NCBI GenBank assembly: GCA_003344405.1
Contig: NOWV01000160.1
Coordinates: 1-64,000, forward strand
Length of the DNA: 64,000 bases
Origin: Trichoplax sp. H2
Taxonomy: Eukaryota
Direction: 5' to 3'
Each line of letters opens with the position of its first letter. Positions within the stretch are counted from its first letter, which is position 1. The notes beneath the pieces were generated by a model. The model searched no databases and was not told the DNA's origin. It saw only the letters and a program-made list of their open reading frames with translations. Shown here piece by piece: positions 1,533 through 61,726 of the stretch. Both the position numbers and the translations under genes were made by a program.

Positions 1533-2162
1533 TGTCACAAATCAGCTTTGCGACAAGATAACGTAATGTACGATCAATAGGTCAATTCCTTGAACCACGT
1601 ATCAAGGGACAATATCTGCACTATCAGAAACACTTTTTCTCTACTAGCAGGCTACACAAAGACTTAGACGCCTCGTATTTTACGTTAAACCTAAGTTTAA
1701 GAATTAACTTTATTACACGATTTATTGCATTTATATACTCTTTCTCAATAGTTCATGAGTCATAGTTAGTACATTTAACTTTGGAATCATTCATTGAATT
1801 AGTCATTAATTTTAGCTGCTGCTTCCTAATGCAGACAACAGTATTTACGAACATAGACATTTGATGACTAATACAGAAAAGTCAAATTATGATATGTCCT
1901 ATCGCGGGATATTTCGAAGATAATTTACAATATACCATAAATAAGTTACAATCACAATGATTCGGACTGTAACTAGATAATTCGCATTCCCTAATATAGC
2001 TATTAATTTCAGTATATGTATATATATGTCACTGTCATAAAAAGGCAGTGCTACATTAAAACAAAGCATATCTAAATTAGAAGTTAACTAAATAAGGATA
2101 GCCTAACAAAATTATTCTTGCATAGATATTTCTACTCCAATGCAGTATATAATACTGTCACA
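1533..2162 (-). mobile_element. Solo-LTR-like element, family A copy 1
   Basis: TGTCACA...TGTCACA ends, homologous to 40725-41349 and 60586-61214. Degenerate TSD ACGGC/ATGGT. Terminal hairpin TGTCACAAA-TCAGC-TTTGCGACA. Confidence 0.85.
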
Positions 2163-6492: not shown

Positions 6493-7105
6493 TGTTGCAA
6501 ATCTCCTTTGTAACAAGAAACCGTGTCTTTAACACTATCTTCACTAGTACTCGTGTTCCCAACTAACTTAGGGACCTATTGTAGTTGAACTAACTTTCAG
6601 CTATACAAATAAGCTACTAATGAGTAATAGGTTTAAATACTTCACTTTTATTTGGTTAAACTTAGTTTTAAAATGTACTAAAGAAAACGTAAGAACATTC
6701 TCAGCAATAATGGTCAAAAGATCTCGCAAGTGACTAACTGGAACTGAACAGCTAAGCTAGTGCTCGGCTTTTTATAGTCTCGGCCAACGCCGATGGTGCA
6801 CTTGTGAATATTCTTGACATAGCGACTTACACTGTGCAGTATATATATATCCTATTGTAGCAAGTAAAGCCTTACGGTATTGCAAAGTAATTAGACCTTA
6901 CACTTAAGGTGTTATTAATTAACGTTTACTGACTAAGCGTGTTAGCTCCGACACGTCAACAATAATGAACTTTCTGATACCTTGGCAATAGCAAGTACTT
7001 ATTAATAAACATTAATATCTAATAAGTTACTGGAGCAAACAACAATTTTAATGAGATATTTTAATTAACATAGCAATTAATATTTCGGAGCATGGCTCCG
7101 TAACA
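6493..7105 (-). mobile_element. Solo-LTR-like element (613 bp)
   Basis: TGTTGCA...CCGTAACA with perfect 5-bp TSD GGTAC. Terminal hairpin TGTTGCAAA-TCTCC-TTTGTAACA. Its GCTCCGTAACA end is shared with 47511-48011. Confidence 0.85.
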
Positions 7106-8192: not shown

Positions 8193-8813
8193 TGTTACGA
8201 GCTAGAAGTAGCCCTGACGTGCAACAAGGATTGAGATAGTGATTTCTACCCTTTACTACTGTTATTTGGAACACCAAACAATTGATATTCCAAGGTAGGT
8301 AGGGTTTAAGATAGGGAGACCTTCCAGACTTACTAGAAAATCACGATCTAATTTATTGTCGGCGAACTTGCCGTTTATATAAGTTTCGGACCTAAAGGGG
8401 ATTCAGCTACTCAAGTCACCTCGTCTCTTAGAAATTAACTAAATTAATGCTCTAAAGAGATTCTATATATACAGATTAAATACAGTCTAATCCTATTAAA
8501 TTTACAGTAACAGTTTTAAAACAATTAATGCTTATTAATAGTTTAACAGATATATATAAAATTATCTCATTAAAATATTTCCTGTAAACTAACGAATTGT
8601 ACTTCGAACCTTAACAACTTGGAAGTGATAGATATAATCCACTTTAGCTGGTAGGTAATTAATGTTTTAGTCTATTTAATCGTAAATTAAGGATATCAAC
8701 TCTTAACCAGTTAAATTACAGTTAAGGAGACCGTAAAATAATTTTAAGATATCAGCATATATAGAACGTAACATAGAAATAAAGTAAACGTCACCAAGAT
8801 TACTATTGCAACA
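8193..8813 (-). mobile_element. Solo-LTR-like element, family C copy 2
   Basis: TGTTACGAGCTAG...GCAACA, degenerate TSD AGTAT/AGCAA, homologous to 4255-4859 and 61220-61726. Confidence 0.75.
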
Positions 8814-13459: not shown

Positions 13460-13740
13460 CGTTACCTAGAATTACGCTCCCGACTGGGACCACTAGCTTC
13501 TCGAGTTTGTGAACTACGCTTCCTTAGGCCAAATTGGGTTAACCATTTACTTCAGCAAATGAGATCAAGACCTTCACTTAAGAACACTATCAGTACAGTT
13601 TATTCTTATCTACGTCTCTCTATCGTATACTACCCTATCTAAAGGCTCCATTTACTTTCTAAGTTATCTGATATTTGCTCTTAATCTCATACAGGAGATT
13701 TCACAACTGTAATCTATTATCCGGTAGCAATCTTGTAACA
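13460..13740. mobile_element. Possible short LTR-like element
   Basis: (T)GTTAC...GTAACA ends flanked by CAGC on both sides. Only one copy in the window. Confidence 0.3.
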
Positions 13741-14949
13741 CAGCTATAAACCCTATCCACGTAAATAACTCTCTAATACAGAGATGAGAACAGCATCGAG
13801 ATTTATATTCTTCTAGTCTATACTCCTAGTCGAATGAAAAATAAAAAAAATAACAAGAAATAAGTAAGAGCAGTTGCTCACTCAACTCCTCTACAAACAA
13901 ACACCATAACACAATCTACTATCACGTAAATATCTCAATTTTTAATAAAAATATTCAATTAGCTAGTTTAACTCATTACGGTAAAGAAACTGTTACATTT
14001 TTATAATGAAAAGATTTCAGGAGTACAGTTAATTCTCATTCTTGAATGGATTATTGCTGTTCACTCAATTCTCTGGTTACTAATCTACGTTGTATCCAAG
14101 ACAATTGTTTAATTATTTTATGACGACGACATATAGCTTTAAAAAAAACACTATGACATACCAATAATCTAAAGCTAAAACCCAGATCAAAATATTTTGA
14201 TTTGTCTTGTATTTAGCAGCAAAGTAATATAATTTTTACTGTATTTTACCCAAAAAATTGACTACCGATTTATCATCTTTGTAGCACATACGTTGCATCG
14301 ACTAAAAACATCGGTTAAATTTTAATCTTACAATACATACTTCTTAACAAAATTATACCGCTGGTTGTTCTTAAATTTAAAATGATTAAAGTAATCTGGT
14401 TTATACTAAGATACCAAGTCAAATCTACTGTAATCAAACTAAATTCCTTTTAAAGCTACAATGCCTATTATAATACAAAAGCTTGAAGGTAAATTTAAAA
14501 ATTAGTCTTCATTGTAAATTAATGTAGTTGGATTACTAATAATAGTTGCTATTGTGTTACTAATATGAGAAGAAATGCTGATTATCAACAATAGGCATAG
14601 TCAATTACTTCATATATATTTAATAACATAGTGGGAGTTTTAAGCATAAAAGTTAAAAAAGTTTAAAATAATTTTAATGCACAGTTGAATCGTAGGGAAG
14701 TGAGTTCTAAAGAAGACCCGATGATTAACAGTTAAATGGCAATATCAGTTGGTAGGAGACCACGGTATCAAAGTTACTATTTAGTAGGTGATAGTATAGG
14801 TAAAAGTTCAATCTATTTTAAATAATCAAAGAATTTTTATTGATGTTGCTCAGCAACGAAATGCAAATATCTAGCCTATTGAACCTACAATTATTCATTA
14901 CCAAAATCTCGTTAGAAATACATTGATTCCTACTATGAGCATAATAATT

Positions 14950-19924: not shown

Positions 19925-20487
19925 TGTGATATAATCCAATCACGAAAATTCCAAAGTTGTAAAAAATTAGAACTTTGGTAGATCTAATACAAAGACTATC
20001 TACACACACCTCTACTCTAGCCTAATACAACTATTACAGGACTTCTAGAAAGAACGAACTGAATAGTCTAAAGTAGCCAATTTATATTCATTTTGTAGCA
20101 GTCCCAGCCATAATCAGCATAGCAACATTCTACCTCCATGTACACATAGTCAAACTATTATTAGAGACAATATTTTTCAGCCATCCATCATTAATCTGAT
20201 ATAGACACAACTACAGCATTTCGGTAGATACTATTCTTAGTAGTCAAATTACGGTAAACTAAGTATATCCTAATAGATAAATTACAGTTCTATTTTTACC
20301 TCTAGCCTTAATAGTAACTCAACGTCTTACTATATATAGTCATCAGTGCTATAGCATAGAATCTACTATTACAGTTCATAGTAGTGAGCTACTAAATACG
20401 TCTTAAGATAAGTATAGAAAGTTATGCTCCCATACATCTTACTAACATGGCTAGAAGTGTACAATCACATTACCAAATTTCGTTACA
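19925..20487 (-). mobile_element. Solo-LTR-like element, family D copy 1
   Basis: TGTGAT...GTTACA, TSD AAAAG/AAAGG. Homologous to the copies at 20597, 29542, 33522 and 61997. Confidence 0.85.
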
Positions 20488-20596: not shown

Positions 20597-21600
20597 TGTG
20601 ATAAAATCCGATCACTGAAATTTCAAAGTTATAAAAAATTAGAACTTTATTAGATTTAATACAATGACCAGCTAACACAGCTCTACCCTAGCTGAATACA
20701 AATGCTGAACCTTTCCTAGAAAGAACAGTCAGATAATCTAATGTCTCCTGCTTTTATACTCTCCCCTAGCCTTCGCAACTACAATCAGCTGTCATAAGCC
20801 AGCTTCGTGACAAGAATAACGTAAAATAAATCTCTAAATTACTATAGTCTCCGACATTCAGTATCCCTACTCACAAGAATTTAGACGCCTTTGATTCTAC
20901 GTTAAACTCAACTAGACAATTGAGAACTACTTTATTCAACTATCTGACGGGCTTATATACCCTTCTACAGCCGCTAACAATCACGATTTATCTTATAAAA
21001 ATACTTAGGTGAGAACATCTGCTAACTAATTTTTCACAGTTGGACTACAATATGTCCATTCATAGAACCATTTCAGTGCACATTACAGCACAGCATTAAA
21101 TTTACTGTAACACATTTATAATTAGAGTAATTCCTATTATAAGTAACTAGTTGTAATATAATATCACAATATTATATTAAGCAAATTTAGATAGCGATTT
21201 CTTCGCGGTAGTTCGTACCGTGACATCAGCATGACAGCATTCCACCATATTTTACTTTTACTTAGCATATTTTTAGTCACAATATTTTACAGCGAATCAT
21301 CATTAATCCAATACAGAAATGATTTCAGTATTCTCGAAGACATTATTTCTAACACTCAAAGTACAATGCACTAAGCATATCATAATATATGATTTACAAT
21401 TATATTTCTACCTGTAACCTTATAAGTAACTCAATGTTTTACCGTATATAGTTATCTGTACTCTAGCATAAAATTCCTACCATACAATCTATAATTATGA
21501 ACTACTAAATATATCATAACATAAATATAGAAACGACATAACCGTACATCATACTAAATATAGCTAATAGTCTACGATCACAATACGAAGTTACTTCACA
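20597..21600 (-). mobile_element. Solo-LTR-like element, family D copy 2 (interrupted by a family E insertion)
   Basis: TGTGAT...TCACA, degenerate TSD AAAGT/ACAGC. Family D homology resumes after 21230. Confidence 0.8.
20790..21225 (-). mobile_element. Solo-LTR-like element, family E copy 1, nested in D copy 2
   Basis: TGTCAT...GTGACA with perfect TSD TCAGC. Closely similar to 52623-53058. Confidence 0.9.
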
Positions 21601-24086: not shown

Positions 24087-24612
24087 TGTCACAATTTCAT
24101 TTCTGCGACAAGGTAACGTACAGTAATAGTCTATAAGAAGCTACTGACTTAAGCGCCCTATTATTTAAAGTTAAATACACACTTTTATTAGTAAAGATAT
24201 ATCTACGAATTTTTACCACACCACTTCACTCAAATGTTCCCGTTTATTTAGGAACCATCTAATTTGTAAACAACAACTGTATTATTATTTTACCTTACTT
24301 GGAGAAACATCTCGAACTGAGATGTTCCATACATAGTTTTTCTATCAGTAAATATTTTGAATCTCTTACTCATACTTAATCCTAATCTAAGCTCTGTTTT
24401 CTAATTCAACTATGATCAACTAGAACTTGAATCATCTTACTGCTATCTATCACACATTAACAATCAATATCAAATATGTAATGAACTATTACAAACAACA
24501 TCTACGTTAAGGCATTACTTATCTTACCTAGCACTACAAATATGGATATTCTCCAATGCTAGCTACTACTGTACTTATTAAACTATCCTAATGACAAGGC
24601 AACACCGCAACA
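24087..24612 (-). mobile_element. Mosaic solo-LTR-like element
   Basis: TGTCACA-ATTTCATTTC-TGCGACA hairpin end to CCGCAACA. Shares ~205 bp with 23140-23345. TSD not clear. Confidence 0.65.
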
Positions 24613-25048: not shown

Positions 25049-26510
25049 CTAAATTTTCCTTGAACGTACTAAATACACTGGATGCGTAGAATATTTTATT
25101 TGATATAATATATTCACGACACAAGACCGAATTATGTCAGCAAAATAAGTTTACAAAACTAATTAATTGTTAGATAATGCCAATTATCTAACTGTTATAA
25201 AATACTTAAGAAAGAGTTTTGTTCTAGGAATCGATCTCAGATTTCTTAATTCCGTTAAAGCCAAAGAAATGACAGTGTAAGGCAGCATAATGACTGTAGT
25301 TATTTCAGCTAATTGCAGTAGTTTTAAGTAGGTAATACAGTCATATTATGTAGTGTAGAACTATATGTCTTAATAAATTATGTGCTATACAAGGCCGTAG
25401 CTGATAACCATATTAAGCAATGCTATCAGGCAATGGACTAATGTTATTGATGACTCCTATGTAGAGGAAGTATTGATGATATATTGTATAAGTTCTACAA
25501 AATTGCTATCGTTGAGGCTAAGTCGATTATCCGGTTTATTGTATCTTAGCTATTTTTGACTTTTAGTATGAGGGGAAGAAATTGGAATTCTTTTCCGATA
25601 GACGACACATGGACGTTATTAAACTTAATAGTTATAAGTCAATTATACAGTGCTGCCTATTTTGTGTCTTATTAGGGATTTGCTCGATTTTTACAACTCA
25701 GAATTTGAGTTGACGGATTACGAACCTAGGGCTAACTATCCGTCCACTACAATGATAACAAAAATTTCAGCTAGGATCACCATTTGAAGTGTGGCTTGTA
25801 TTATGTTTAGACTAGTGAAAATGGTCCGTCTCGCGATCTGATGATGTCGTAGATGTCACTATTAAGCGCCGGCGACGATTGAAATAGCGTAAAATGCTAG
25901 AAAACCAAAAGATTATAATTAATTATGGCAATATAAACCAACCGAAATTTTTCCAGTTAAAGAAATGTTCGTTAAGGTAATGATGATTCTAGCGGTAAGC
26001 AGTAAGTAGCATCGTTCTGAAGAAATCCTTTATAACGTCAAAATAGGATGAAAGGCGCAGTTAATAAGAGTAGTCAAGATAAAATAATCAAATAAAAGTA
26101 TAATTTCCTTATATCCTTTCATCGGTATTTGATAGGGAATTTTACAGCGTCACAGCGATCTATACTAATACTTAAAAGGCATTGACGGAGATTATTATTA
26201 AATAATAATGGCAAGCCAGACAAAGATAAAAAGGAGTAAAGAATACCGTTTCTGCTAATTAAATTGAAAGCAGCCGATCTCAGTAAAATGTAAACGCACC
26301 AAAGAATGCTAATAGTGAAGGAACTATTAATGATCATTACGGTTTTATTTTTCCTGTTATTTCATGTTATTAGAGGTACCAATATCAATATATTGTTTAT
26401 GCTGGCGATGCCTCCAGTAATAGCCCATGCTTCGAAAACATCACTTACAAGATGATATTCTGTTTCGTTATTATTTTCTTGTTGTAGACAAGTCTTAAGG
26501 CTACAATGCT
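25049..26510 (-). pseudogene. GPCR pseudogene of the array family, split in TM6 by an insertion
   Basis: EAWAITGGIASINN, NNNLRQCLLSISIDRC..VKFP, ATLQMVILAEIFVI|IMLPYTV and YFADIIR, with stops and frameshifts. Start coordinate is approximate. Confidence 0.85.
25295..25751 (+). mobile_element. Solo-LTR-like element, family F, inserted in GPCR TM6
   Basis: TGTAGT...ACTACA, TSD ATGAC/ATGAT. Removing it restores the TM6 reading frame. 25460-25722 is homologous to 63744-64000. Confidence 0.85.
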
Positions 26511-34545: not shown

Positions 34546-35760
34546 TGTAGTAAAGGACTAAAAGTAGAGTCCTTTATAGCTTTTAGTATGTAACTAGTAT
34601 TATTTTACTATAGAAAATACCTAGAAAGTGATAGTGTCTTTAAGTTTTACCCTGCCAAATCATCATGTCGCCGTCTTTTCTTCTTCATTATTTTACAAGG
34701 TATTATATTGATTACTATAGAAGCAGCCCGAGAGCAAATGCTTAATCTAAAGAAAGGGCGTTTGATCGTCTATTCAAATTGTAAGTAAATTTGACATAGT
34801 AACAAATCCCTATCCTTAGAGAAAGGGGATTTATGACATGACAGTAAAGTACTGTAATGTAGTCTATAATCGTACAGTTACAGTACAATCTGACGCTAAA
34901 ACATCAACTGTCAATACTCAGCGATACTAACGTCAGAAAAGTAGTCGTAATAGTCATATAAAATTTTTGATAAGCGATTAGTGTGATCTTTATAAAATCC
35001 GAATTTTTCGGATTCGGATTCCGGAACCGGTCGGATTTATGTCTGATATAATTTTCCTGTTTTAATTTTTGAATTTTTGTTCATGAAAAATATCGTTTTT
35101 TTAAGAGTCGATTTTTGAAATTTGAACTTTTTGCTATGAATTTGAAACTTTGGAATTTTATGATGTGACTGGAAAGTCACGTTAGGAAAGTTAGTTAGGA
35201 AAATAGAAAATAAGATGGAAATTGGCAGAGGTTGTGTAGATTGTTAAGTAGTTAGACTGTTACTTTTATGACTAAATCTTGATGTTTAAAGGTTAATTTT
35301 TAGACTTTTATAATGCATTAATGATAGAAATTATGTTAGAAGTGAAGTTTGATATATATTATAGTTAACTTTTTGGTTTTATAGTATTTTGTAAGGGAAT
35401 CGTAGGGTAAATTGTGTCTGAACTTTGAATGATTTTTGTTTTCTTAAATGGTGCAAAGTAGTTTTCTAAAACGGATCAAGAGCGATTGGTTAGTAAATGT
35501 TTAGTTTTAAATACCTCTGACGGCTCTACGAAGCCTATAAATGATAGTGCAATTAGAAAATTTAGAGGGAGAGTAGAAGAAGATTGTTTGAAGTACTTGT
35601 TGAATTTAAAAGGCCTTTGAGGTTGAATTGTTGTAAGTTAAAACGTAGTTCTTTTTGAAAGGTTGTTTGGTTGTTGACATTTTTTTAGTCTGTCACTTAT
35701 TTTATTAATATTTAAAGTTAAGTTTTTGTAAGATTGTTCGGTTTATACTTCTCCATTTTT
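34546..35760. mobile_element. Truncated long-TIR element (family B): left TIR plus probable internal remnant
   Basis: Starts TGTAGTAAAGGACT. 34546-35096 matches the reverse complement of 1-639. It is followed by a strongly G/T-skewed segment, and the right boundary is approximate. Confidence 0.7.
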
Positions 35761-37148
35761 TTGTAATAAATTGTTGATCAATTATTTCCCCAAATTTTAT
35801 TTAGTGTCAAAGTTTCGTCAAGTCGACCGGAGTGCAACGAAAGCAGAATCAAAGTCTATTAAAGTTTTGCAGCTTGATTTCCACACTTTTCATTCCATTA
35901 CAAATAGCCTATACTTCCTAAAATACTGTAAGTCACAAGGATAAAAGCTAGATAATAAGATGACAATACCAAGGAAATGAGCTGATTAAGTATTAGTTAT
36001 TTTATCTCTACCAAATTCTGTTACAATATTGTATCCTGAAAGTCATTAATAAAGATGGGAAACCATCTTAGTATGAGAACTATAACAAGCTTAATTTACT
36101 TGTGAATAATTTAAATTAGATACTGTAATGTTGACAAGATTAAGTAACATAAATAATGTTGAAATTAGCCTAAGATCTCCTATTATAACAAAGATATCTT
36201 ATCTATCTCGACGATTAAAATAACGCTCTCAATTAATGGATATACGCAATGTAATTAGTTACTATCTATTTCTTATATGGAAAATAGGATGATAATACGC
36301 TGCGTATAGGCGCCAGCAGAAGCTGCTACTGGGCTAATTAAATATATATTTAAAAAGTTATCTTTACTAGGGTAGTTGAAGATATTCTTGTCAGTTGCAT
36401 ATATAATTAGACCTTTTCATAGCTGTTAGCTCTCATCCTCCATTAATATCAGATGCCAACTCAAATTGTCTTAAATTTTAACAATCATCACTGACGTTTT
36501 TGACTGGATTTAAATTTTTTACAGAAACATTATTAAAATTATTTCGCTATAATCTCAGTGCATCAGCAAGTTCTCTTGCTAGAAATGTCAGTTTATTAAG
36601 AATCTTAACTATTCTATGTCATGCCATATATAATTATCGTCTGCAACTAGATTATGAAAGAGTGTACTTGAAAAAGCTTTTTTTCACATAAATTAAAGTA
36701 TATTGTAACAATGAAAAGAAAATCTAAGAGGGAATGATATAACAGATTAAATAAGATTAAGGCACTTAAATTTAATTTTAGGATAACATTTGAAATAAAG
36801 ACTGAATTCCACAGTAATTATAACATTTTGGTGTAAAATAATTCGGTGATTTGATATATCTAGCTGCAGTAATACGATTATCACGGTTAACGAAGCGGAA
36901 AGATTTTATCGCTTACTTTCCTCTTTTCTCTACCGTCAACCTACTCATACCTTTTCTGAAATCTCTATATTGTACATCTTTATGTCATAAACTATGACTT
37001 CATTTATAGAATGCAAATACTTTGAACTTAGAAAACAGTGAATTAACAACGCTCCATAATTAGAATTCTCTAACACGCTCTATTATAGAAAATACTTTGC
37101 TCTCGTATCTGTCATTATAATCTTACTACTGGCAATTTTATCTAGTAT

Positions 37149-52622: not shown

Positions 52623-53058
52623 TGTCACAAACCAGCTTCGTGACAAGAATAACGTAAAATAATTCTCTAAATCTCTTAAAATCTGCGGATTCAGTATCCC
52701 TACTCACAGGAATTTATACGACTCTGATTCTACGTCTAACTCAACTAGACAATTGAGAACTGCTTTATTCAACTATCTGACGGGCTTAAATACCCTTCTA
52801 CAGCAGCTAACATTCATGAGTCATCTTATAAAAATACTTAGGTGAGAACATCTGCTAACTAATTTTTCACAGTCGGACTACAATATGTCCATTTACAGAA
52901 TCACTTCAGTGCACATTACAGCATAGCATTAAATTTACTGTAATGCTTTTATAATTAGAGTAATTCCTATTGTAAGTAACTAGTTGTAATATAATATCAC
53001 TATATTATATTCACAAAATTTAGATAGCTATTTCTTCACGGTATTTCGTACCGTGATA
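52623..53058 (-). mobile_element. Solo-LTR-like element, family E copy 2
   Basis: TGTCACA...GTGATA with perfect TSD AGATT. Homologous to 20790-21225. Confidence 0.92.
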
Positions 53059-60585: not shown

Positions 60586-61214
60586 TGTGACAGTGTTATT
60601 TACTGTATTAGAATAGAAATATCTATGTTAAGATAATTCTATTAGCCTATATTTATTAAGTTTACTTCTAATTTGAATATACTGTGTTTTAATTTAGCAC
60701 TGACTTTTTATGATAGTGACACATATACACATACTGAAATTAATAGTTATAATAGGGAATGTAAATCATCTGCTTACAGTTCGAATCATTGTGATTGTAA
60801 CTTACTTATGCTAGATTGTAAATTATCGTGGAAATGTTCCGTGATAAGACATATCGTAATCTGACGATTCTGTATTAGCCATCAGATGTCTATGTTCGTA
60901 AATACTGTTATCTGCATTAAGGGAGCAGTAGCTGTAATTAATATCTAATTCAATGAATGATTCCAAAGTTAATCGTATTAACTATGACTCATAAACTATT
61001 AAGGAATAGTATATAAATGCAGTATATCGTGTAATAAAGTGGATTCTGAAACTTAGTGTTTAACGTAAAATACGAGGCGTTTAAGTCTTTGTGTAGTCTG
61101 CTAGTAGAGCAAAAGCGTTTTTGATAGTGCAGATATCGTTCCTTGATACGTTGTTAAGGAAATGACTTATTGATCGTACATTACGTTATCTTGCTGCAAA
61201 GCTGTTTTGTGACA
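60586..61214 (+). mobile_element. Solo-LTR-like element, family A copy 3
   Basis: TGTGACA...TGTGACA with perfect TSD ACTAG, TATATAAA at 61010, AATAAA at 61033. Confidence 0.92.
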
Positions 61215-61219
61215 ACTAG

Positions 61220-61726
61220 TCTGATATTATTAATCTACGATTACATAGACTAAAATAGTAATCGCCTACCAGCTAATCTGGATGATATTTATCACCTCTA
61301 AGTTGTTAAGGTTCAAAGTACAATTCCTAAGTTTAGAGGGAATTTCTTAGTAGAATAGCTTTATATGTATCTGTTAAAGTATTAAGCAGTATTGATTATT
61401 TTAATACTGTTACAGTAAATTTAATAGGATTAGACTGTATATAATCTGTAGAGTTAAAATCTCTTAAGGTATTAATTTAGTTAATTCCTTATAGACGAGG
61501 TGATTTATGTAGCTAAACCGGTTTTAGGTCTGAAACCTATATAAATGGCGAGTTCGCCGACAATAAATTAGATTGTGATTTTCTAATAAATCTTGAAGGT
61601 CTTGCTGTGTTACATTCTATCTGCCTTGAAATACCAATTGTCCGGTATTCCAAATAACGGTAGCAAAGTATCGAAACCATCCTCTCAATCCTTGTTGCAA
61701 GTTAGAGCTATTGCTAGCTCGTGACA
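61220..61726 (+). mobile_element. Solo-LTR-like element, family C copy 3 (left part interrupted by A copy 3)
   Basis: Reverse complement of ~8193-8700, ends CTAGCTCGTGACA. Confidence 0.8.

Follow-up and report, generated by a model that had tools for sequence, protein, structure and literature searches.

The 64,000 bases of Trichoplax sp. H2 analysed here (the whole stretch is called the window; G+C 26-33%) contain dispersed repeats of which one end can fold back on itself. This raises the questions to which elements these ends belong, whether the fold-back exceeds what chance would produce and what it might do for the element. Eight such inverted repeats were listed in an initial annotation made from the sequence, and all eight are present in the window exactly as written, coordinates included. 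The hairpin is real although it was partly misdescribed, and most likely it represents a stem at the priming site similar to the U5-IR of known retroelements.

Inverted repeats and the elements that they terminate

The inverted repeats form the termini of dispersed elements of 290-1360 bp that start with TGT and finish with ACA, and the seeds of the LTR families make up 14,506 of the 64,000 window bases (about 23%). The elements and their hairpins are the following:

1533..2162, minus strand: family A solo LTR, 630 bp, with a decayed 5-bp target duplication (3/5 bases match)
1533..1555, minus strand: U5-terminal hairpin of this family A copy, a 9-pair stem with one G·U on the transcribed strand and a loop of 5 nt; the att end used by integrase forms the outer arm
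6493..7105, minus strand: solo LTR of family 6493 (alias V), with an exact 5-bp target duplication
6493-6515: U5 hairpin of this family 6493 (V) copy, which has a second short hairpin just within the U3 end
8193..8813, plus strand: family C solo LTR, its orientation taken from termini like those of PBS-anchored families; U3-type hairpin near 8199-8214, U5-type hairpin at about 8790-8813, decayed in that copy
13586..13997, minus strand: decayed LTR remnant, 74% to the 5' LTR of an integrase-before-RT gypsy element (G000:C754)
19925..20487, minus strand: solo LTR of the family D group, with a 5-bp stem at 19926-19943 that is at chance level
20790..21225, minus strand: family E solo LTR with an exact target duplication, sitting within a D copy; 93% to the LTR ahead of a tRNA-Leu PBS at G000:C830 (L059)
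24087..24612, minus strand: LTR-like, 24087 family; the terminal stem has 8 pairs, two of them G·U
25460..25751, plus strand: family F element, 7-bp inverted repeat at 25712-25744
34546..35902, minus strand: family B element of 1357 bp; its stem (34551-34576) is 9 bp long without a mismatch and stops 5 nt short of the terminus
52623..53058, minus strand: family E solo LTR, U5 hairpin at 52623-52645 with one G·U and a 7-bp hairpin just within the U3 end
60586..61214, plus strand: family A solo LTR with an exact target duplication
61222..61726, minus strand: 5' part of a family C LTR, hairpin at 61705-61720, 7 nt inside the 5' (U3-type) end

The window also holds eight single-exon frames of rhodopsin-type GPCRs on the minus strand (2293-59633), with LTR copies in between. 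The named relatives of these GPCRs come from Trichoplax, which marks the host as a placozoan.

Family A gave 681 first-look candidates in genome G000, of which 40 were scored, and in 28/31 full copies listed the two sides of the 5-bp target duplication agree at 4 or 5/5 bases. Target duplications were likewise seen for E, D, 6493 and J, on elements with TG...CA ends. In the window, families A, D, E and 6493 are represented by solo LTRs that derive from Ty3/gypsy retrotransposons of the placozoan. An assignment to non-autonomous DNA transposons (MITEs, Ginger-type) was rejected, as the inverted ends measure just 3-7 bp and the PBS, PPT or pol context found for A, D, E and 6493 speaks against it. 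Family B may belong to a different element class: it is longer (1357 bp), has internal short repeats and a subterminal hairpin (copies at 34546-35902 and 90-639), and neither of its two full-length copies has a clear target duplication. No target duplication was found for the window copy of family F.

The stems comprise 8/9 Watson-Crick pairs in each of A, 6493 and E and 6/8 in 24087, while D has 5 such pairs, C 6, F 7 and B 9. Where pairing is imperfect in A, E and 24087, the transcribed strand has G·U, and typical family A copies carry two such pairs (in 39 and 42 of 44 copies, respectively); the imperfect pair of the 6493 window copy is A·C and occurs in 1/5 copies sampled. The arms of family F are perfect in the window copy only (1/4 copies), the three others being different. 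The families had been described as differing in sequence, but the terminal bases argue otherwise: about 35 of them are homologous among the ends of A, E, 6493 and 24087, and the same holds for A, E, G, K, Q, C and 24087. The assignment of the hairpins to the U5 end is borne out for A, E, D and 6493 by features independent of the hairpin, namely a PBS behind this end (E, 6493) or RNase H with a purine tract ahead of the opposite one (A, D). It fails for C, whose hairpin at 61705-61720 most likely marks the 5' (U3) end. This C end is similar to the U3 ends found in E, K and 6493, and the opposite C end has a terminal hairpin like that of E and K; judged by such resemblances, the U3-type end of C probably carries the hairpin at 61705-61720, the TATA and AATAAA motifs being ambiguous.

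In A, E and 6493 the hairpin had also been noted to form a 23-bp mini TGT...ACA unit, and a pattern for such units was used to look for free-standing ones. Among 41 pattern matches, the five that qualified as candidates by strand or flank were fetched, and 0/5 stand free: all five lie at LTR ends, four of them at the ends of known families and one at an apparently new family. Families A, E, G, C, K and 6493 also have short hairpins just within the U3 end, with a median of 5-7 pairs, where interior sequence reaches 5, 6 or 7 pairs in 25%, 11% and 4% of cases. In the window they lie at 53037-53056 (E), 7087-7100 (6493), 61705-61720 (C) and 2142-2158 (A), and in RNA they would stand right behind the PPT.

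Parent elements and the priming site

Five integrase and six RT matches were found in G000. One locus, L038 (G000:C754:34-4571, minus strand), encodes Gag-protease followed by integrase (101-448), RT (575-734) and RNase H (799-927). Its frames are open except where the assembly has gaps; active transposons have been reported to be absent from this lineage. Its 5' LTR, 74% alike to window positions 13586-13853, has an 8-bp terminal hairpin at the end, followed by 3 nt and then by TGGTGGCAGCGGTGGGAT. This motif is complementary to tRNA-Leu(AAG) and tRNA-Leu(UAG) of the host, namely to the 3' ends of their genes with CCA added, and it has 19 matches at <=2 mismatches as compared to 0 in the reversed control; 16/19 stand 1-4 nt behind an LTR-type end, while one is rearranged and two are due to chance. 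A looser pattern, the A or E ends followed by TGG, was uninformative (181 matches vs 459 in the control). In full-length copies the hairpin takes up the last 22-26 nt of U5, and the 18-nt tRNA-Leu PBS begins 1-4 nt further on. Complementarity to tRNA-Leu is longer than these 18 nt in three loci: it runs on into the T-loop, to 23 nt in L056 and with one extra base in L060 and L064.

Several window families can be placed in this context. Family E precedes a PBS at L059 (93%), and family 6493 is tied to the PBS via L060 and L064. At G000:C184 (L085), the end of RNase H and a purine tract rich in G precede a family A LTR (92.5%). The RT-RNase H remnant at G000:C214 (L050) terminates in a family D LTR, and its target duplication matches; on C364, RNase H and a PPT are followed by a family N LTR. 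RNase H is the domain nearest to the LTR in all three cases. A two-LTR element is located at G000:C174. The U5 of 24087 has 55 bp that are 80% alike to the PBS-anchored loci L056 and L080. No parent with PBS, PPT or pol turned up for B, F, C or 24087 in the overlapping loci sampled, which amount to about 0.96 Mb. The PBS or the RNase H-PPT context places the hairpin of A, D, E and 6493 at the U5 end and makes a tRNA the primer of these families.

These parents also decide on self-priming, which had been offered as one function of the hairpin and according to which the RNA's own 5' end would serve as primer, as in Tf1. The precedent of Tf1, for which a paper title listed in PMC4600332 (Lin and Levin 1998) names a U5-IR-like stem-loop, gives this idea some appeal. 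Both the placozoan parents and their relatives outside placozoans have an 18-nt tRNA-Leu or tRNA-Leu-type PBS, however, and self-priming is therefore rejected; the tRNA-Leu PBS refutes it for E, 6493 and seven other lineages, and overall we regard it as hardly credible.

By their gene order, the parents are Gmr1-type gypsy elements, as read from sequence; the relatives compared are unnamed or generically named proteins. The order of integrase before RT marks rGmr1 among the gypsy elements, as stated in the part of PMC3601003 available, and L038 likewise has integrase ahead of RT and RNase H. The placozoan 3' att, GTNACA, matches the CGTNACA given in the accessible part of the published description. 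The nearest Pol relatives, at about 50% identity, carry a SCAN-like Gag: all five scanned have the same gene order and a SCAN domain, whereas Pfam SCAN was not matched in the placozoan Gag of L038 at E<=0.001. Integrase-before-RT loci from outside the placozoans were taken from a scan of genome_contigs (51 loci, 45 of which were examined together with 4 metagenome loci), and they too have tRNA-Leu-type PBSs. The metagenome scan gave 6 loci, none of them with a PBS, and that of viral_contigs no matches.

Solo LTRs, Gmr1-type elements and U5 stems at the PBS are each known kinds of feature. For the hairpin or its parents in placozoan or Gmr1-like LTRs, no description was found in the literature searched, subscription papers, Repbase reports and supplements lying largely outside this search, and the part of PMC12221973 available contains nothing bearing on either. 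Transposable elements were put at 0.13% of the genome in PMC2871265, the accessible part of which reports gypsy RT fragments and no credible LTR element. The abundant short repeats of a genome portrayed there as nearly free of transposons are now tied to a defined gypsy lineage, in which a retrotransposon of an early-branching animal has a predicted retrovirus-like stem at its priming site.

Pairing against chance and the possible role of the stem

Folding and pairing were evaluated on 26 family seeds, each of them a real copy, and on 1-48 copies per family. The median z of folding lies at about -1 to -2.4 for most GTRACA-ended families, which is modest, and near 0 for D, F, J, W and X; the stem of family B is significant by energy (z -3.8), and that of family D is no better than chance (z -0.4, p 0.34-0.49). 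The register of the stem includes the last base of the LTR or nearly so. As a control that leaves the integrase end unchanged, interior LTR sequence was joined to the same last 9 nt and compared with a PBS-selected set of 14 copies from 8 lineages, which excludes L060 and L064 (no upstream LTR) and 3 non-LTR matches. The combined Fisher p was 0.0037 with G·U counted and 3.9e-5 with Watson-Crick pairs only, both values being too small because the statistic was designed after the hairpins had been seen and because the lineages are related. Single-lineage p values range from 0.007 to 0.87, with p<0.05 reached in 2/8 lineages if G·U is counted and in 4/8 with Watson-Crick pairs only. Among GTRACA-ended families, 5/18 U5 ends vs 0/18 U3 ends have p<=0.05. 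Measured against such controls, the GTRACA-ended families thus stand out as a group and family D, although a proven LTR of Gmr1-type gypsy elements, has merely a 5-bp stem at chance level. At about -3 to -9 kcal/mol, the predicted stems are weak ones. If the PBS is blocked, 6/7 copies are predicted to form the local hairpin; for the single PBS-anchored E copy, a U5-leader helix is preferred in the predicted fold.

The paired substitutions between families, which had been taken to suggest selection on structure, were overstated. A two-sided change does occur at position -4, where the 18 GTRACA-ended seeds have C-G in 13 cases, T-A in 3 and T·G in 2; position -7 is A-T, G·T or G-C. Since the ends are homologous, these one or two positions stand for one or two events and not for many. 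Of the 108 pairs at positions -3 to -8, 88 are of the Watson-Crick type, 15 are G·U, one is A·C and four are of other kinds, and the stem remains while the loop varies in sequence and in length (4-14 nt). Within family A, 44 ungapped copies have 27 broken vs 15 kept changed pairs and no double change, as is expected for dead copies. The excess of G·U is not significant against controls and gives no proof of selection at the RNA level; it is expected because the outer arm is rich in G and T and transitions make up 62% of substitutions, and control windows likewise favour G·U over A·C (571 to 303). The first base of the spacer between LTR and PBS is paired in 8/10 copies, by T:A where the spacer is AT and by G·U where it is of the TA type. 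This extension of the stem into the spacer, a part that solo LTRs lack, is a hint of a role in RNA and amounts to about one event.

The U5-IR stem of avian retroviruses and of Tf1 helps to present or pace the initiation of reverse transcription. In Rous sarcoma virus and Tf1 an inverted repeat lies at the 3' end of U5 before the priming site, as the parts of PMC3601003 and PMC4600332 available describe it; there, as in the placozoan elements, it adjoins the priming site and overlaps the att end. The placozoan stem differs in that it takes in the last LTR base and may extend into the spacer, and Tf1 differs in that it self-primes while the placozoan Gmr1-type gypsy uses tRNA-Leu. HIV-1 and HIV-2 have a U5 hairpin just before the PBS that is linked to initiation (accessible part of PMC3185550), and the hairpin just upstream of an 18-nt PBS is common to both systems. 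In HIV, the loops are rich in A and pair with the anticodon of the tRNA, whereas placozoan loops vary freely.

Guided by the U5-IR analogy, we give a probability of roughly 55% to the reading that the stem forms in the genomic RNA before the annealed tRNA and tunes initiation. A stem-loop for priming had been among the functions first suggested, and it is the best reading of the U5 position and the adjoining tRNA PBS, the RNA pairing as such resting on predicted folds. The arms would pair in genomic RNA into a weak stem of 7-10 bp before the 3' end of the annealed tRNA, at the first bases copied by reverse transcriptase, and would help to present or pace tRNA-primed initiation. As the outer arm would be fixed by integrase, the inner arm would follow it by Watson-Crick or G·U pairing. 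Selection would act on active master elements only, and solo copies would inherit the stem and then decay neutrally. We restrict this reading to the GTRACA-ended group, namely A, E, 6493, 24087, the other end of C and their relatives, and do not extend it to D, B or F. Natural variants at each pair offer a test set in which tRNA-primed initiation and integrase recognition meet on one stretch.

A different origin of the symmetry lies in DNA, where the inner arm may be a second, inverted site for integrase or a host factor and the fold-back a by-product. The inner arm often starts with TGT and resembles the LTR's own 5' end; the 5-7 bp inverted repeats just within the U3 end (A, E, G, C, K, V) fit dyad sites, and the insertions L060 and L064 described below would mean that an internal near-palindromic att can serve integrase as a left end. 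Neither of these short-left-end insertions starts at the inner TGT, however, and the inner TG is not intact in 5/18 families that keep the inner stem (K, K1, K3, Q and R, with the stem kept from -3 inward in four and from -4 in one). An arm spacing of 4-14 nt is unlike a fixed protein footprint, none of the five mini-units stands free, and G·U pairs would be mismatches in a DNA symmetry. The double integrase-binding site proposed earlier is weakened by the broken inner TG in those families and by the lack of a free mini-unit among the five candidates, and we consider a DNA-level explanation unlikely.

The stem may also be neutral, that is, an ancestral inverted duplication of the att made by template switching and kept matched by rare palindrome correction together with transition bias. 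This agrees with the homology of the terminal 35 bp among A, E, G, K, Q, C and 24087, with the small number of independent paired changes, with the absence of compensation within A and with the fact that the hairpin is not general outside placozoans. Yet most LTR bodies no longer align at E<=1e-4 and the loops are unrelated while the register of the stem persists, and palindrome correction would lead to perfect pairs, whereas family A spread (681 first-look candidates) with two fixed G·U. Neutral persistence therefore appears rather doubtful to us, and initiation tuned by an RNA stem is the reading that we retain. As to its range, the distinct non-placozoan LTR ends next to a PBS, taken from loci with the same gene order, have a strong U5 hairpin (p<=0.01) in 4/16 cases with a median z of -0.1 and varying registers, and the 8 placozoan lineages have a median z of -1.1 vs 0.0 upstream (Wilcoxon p 0.027). 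The att-inclusive hairpin is thus not general in non-placozoan members of the rGmr1 clade, and it is a trait of the placozoan lineage and not a need of the clade.

Insertions that start at TGTAACA and further elements

Two target-duplicated insertions, L060 (G000:C114, near 73770-74335) and L064 (G000:C497, near 123830-124932), have an unusual structure. They are 91% alike and have different flanks and different exact 5-bp target duplications. Their left end is TGTAACA, the last 7 bp of the LTR, which is followed by AT and the PBS, by about 185 nt of internal sequence and by the 3' 357 nt of the 6493 LTR with its TGTAACA end; the start of U3 and a G-rich PPT are absent. This structure has only two full matches in G000 (3 matches overall), and no master copy with a full 5' LTR was found there. 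The left junction of L060 is bridged without differences by a 209-nt contig in 4/4 runs from 4 studies, although one run may be the window's own source, and it is therefore not an assembly error; the read tables have no loose ends at the L060/L064 junction among the matches listed.

The sequence TGTAACA (TGTRACA) is nearly palindromic, with GTNACA read on both strands, and a one-LTR circle cut at its single att would therefore leave the structure of L060 and L064. A staggered cut at this att would yield a permuted circle with a 7-bp duplication. We tentatively propose, for two cases from one lineage and as a possibility that we hold to be improbable on balance, that the near-palindromic U5 att lets integrase open and insert a one-LTR circle. 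Integrase cuts both strands of a palindromic circle junction, and circles accumulate when the PPT is changed, as reported in the available parts of PMC1905944 and PMC11680205, respectively. As described there, the cleavage of 2-LTR circle junctions is similar in that integrase cuts an internal palindrome on both strands; it differs in that here the single U5 att of a one-LTR circle would be used and 7 bp are duplicated. As an alternative, stray plus-strand priming may have occurred in the loop of 6493, which is purine-rich and could act as a cryptic PPT. That would predict the AT-TGT junction at natural PPTs, a prediction that failed, as the two clear ones end with GGGGGAG or GGGGGAA. If circles do insert, PPT-less or LTR-only circles could be mobile, and solo LTRs, which are in large excess in placozoans, could also arise by circle insertion as a second route, one for which the literature search found no description in retrotransposons.

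Some further elements were seen in the course of the analysis. L055 (G000:C255, near 80073) is a rearranged family E element with gag inverted upstream and with the PBS and 47 nt of leader between an inverted duplication. L173, L175, L176 and L174 (G000:C214, C221, C524 and C190, respectively) are LTRs of a young family; they are 97-98% alike, and their terminal stem contains two G·U pairs. Three of the copies are 5'-truncated alike, with a purine-rich start and different left flanks. In genome_contigs, the loci L177-L221 include bacterial and archaeal bins with complete animal-type LTR retrotransposons that have LTR pairs and a PBS, and these are probably host DNA in the bins. L039 (G000:C546:1-8700) and L036 (G000:C231) have an integrase beside several open frames that resemble a Polinton-type gene set (putative protease, capsid and ATPase).
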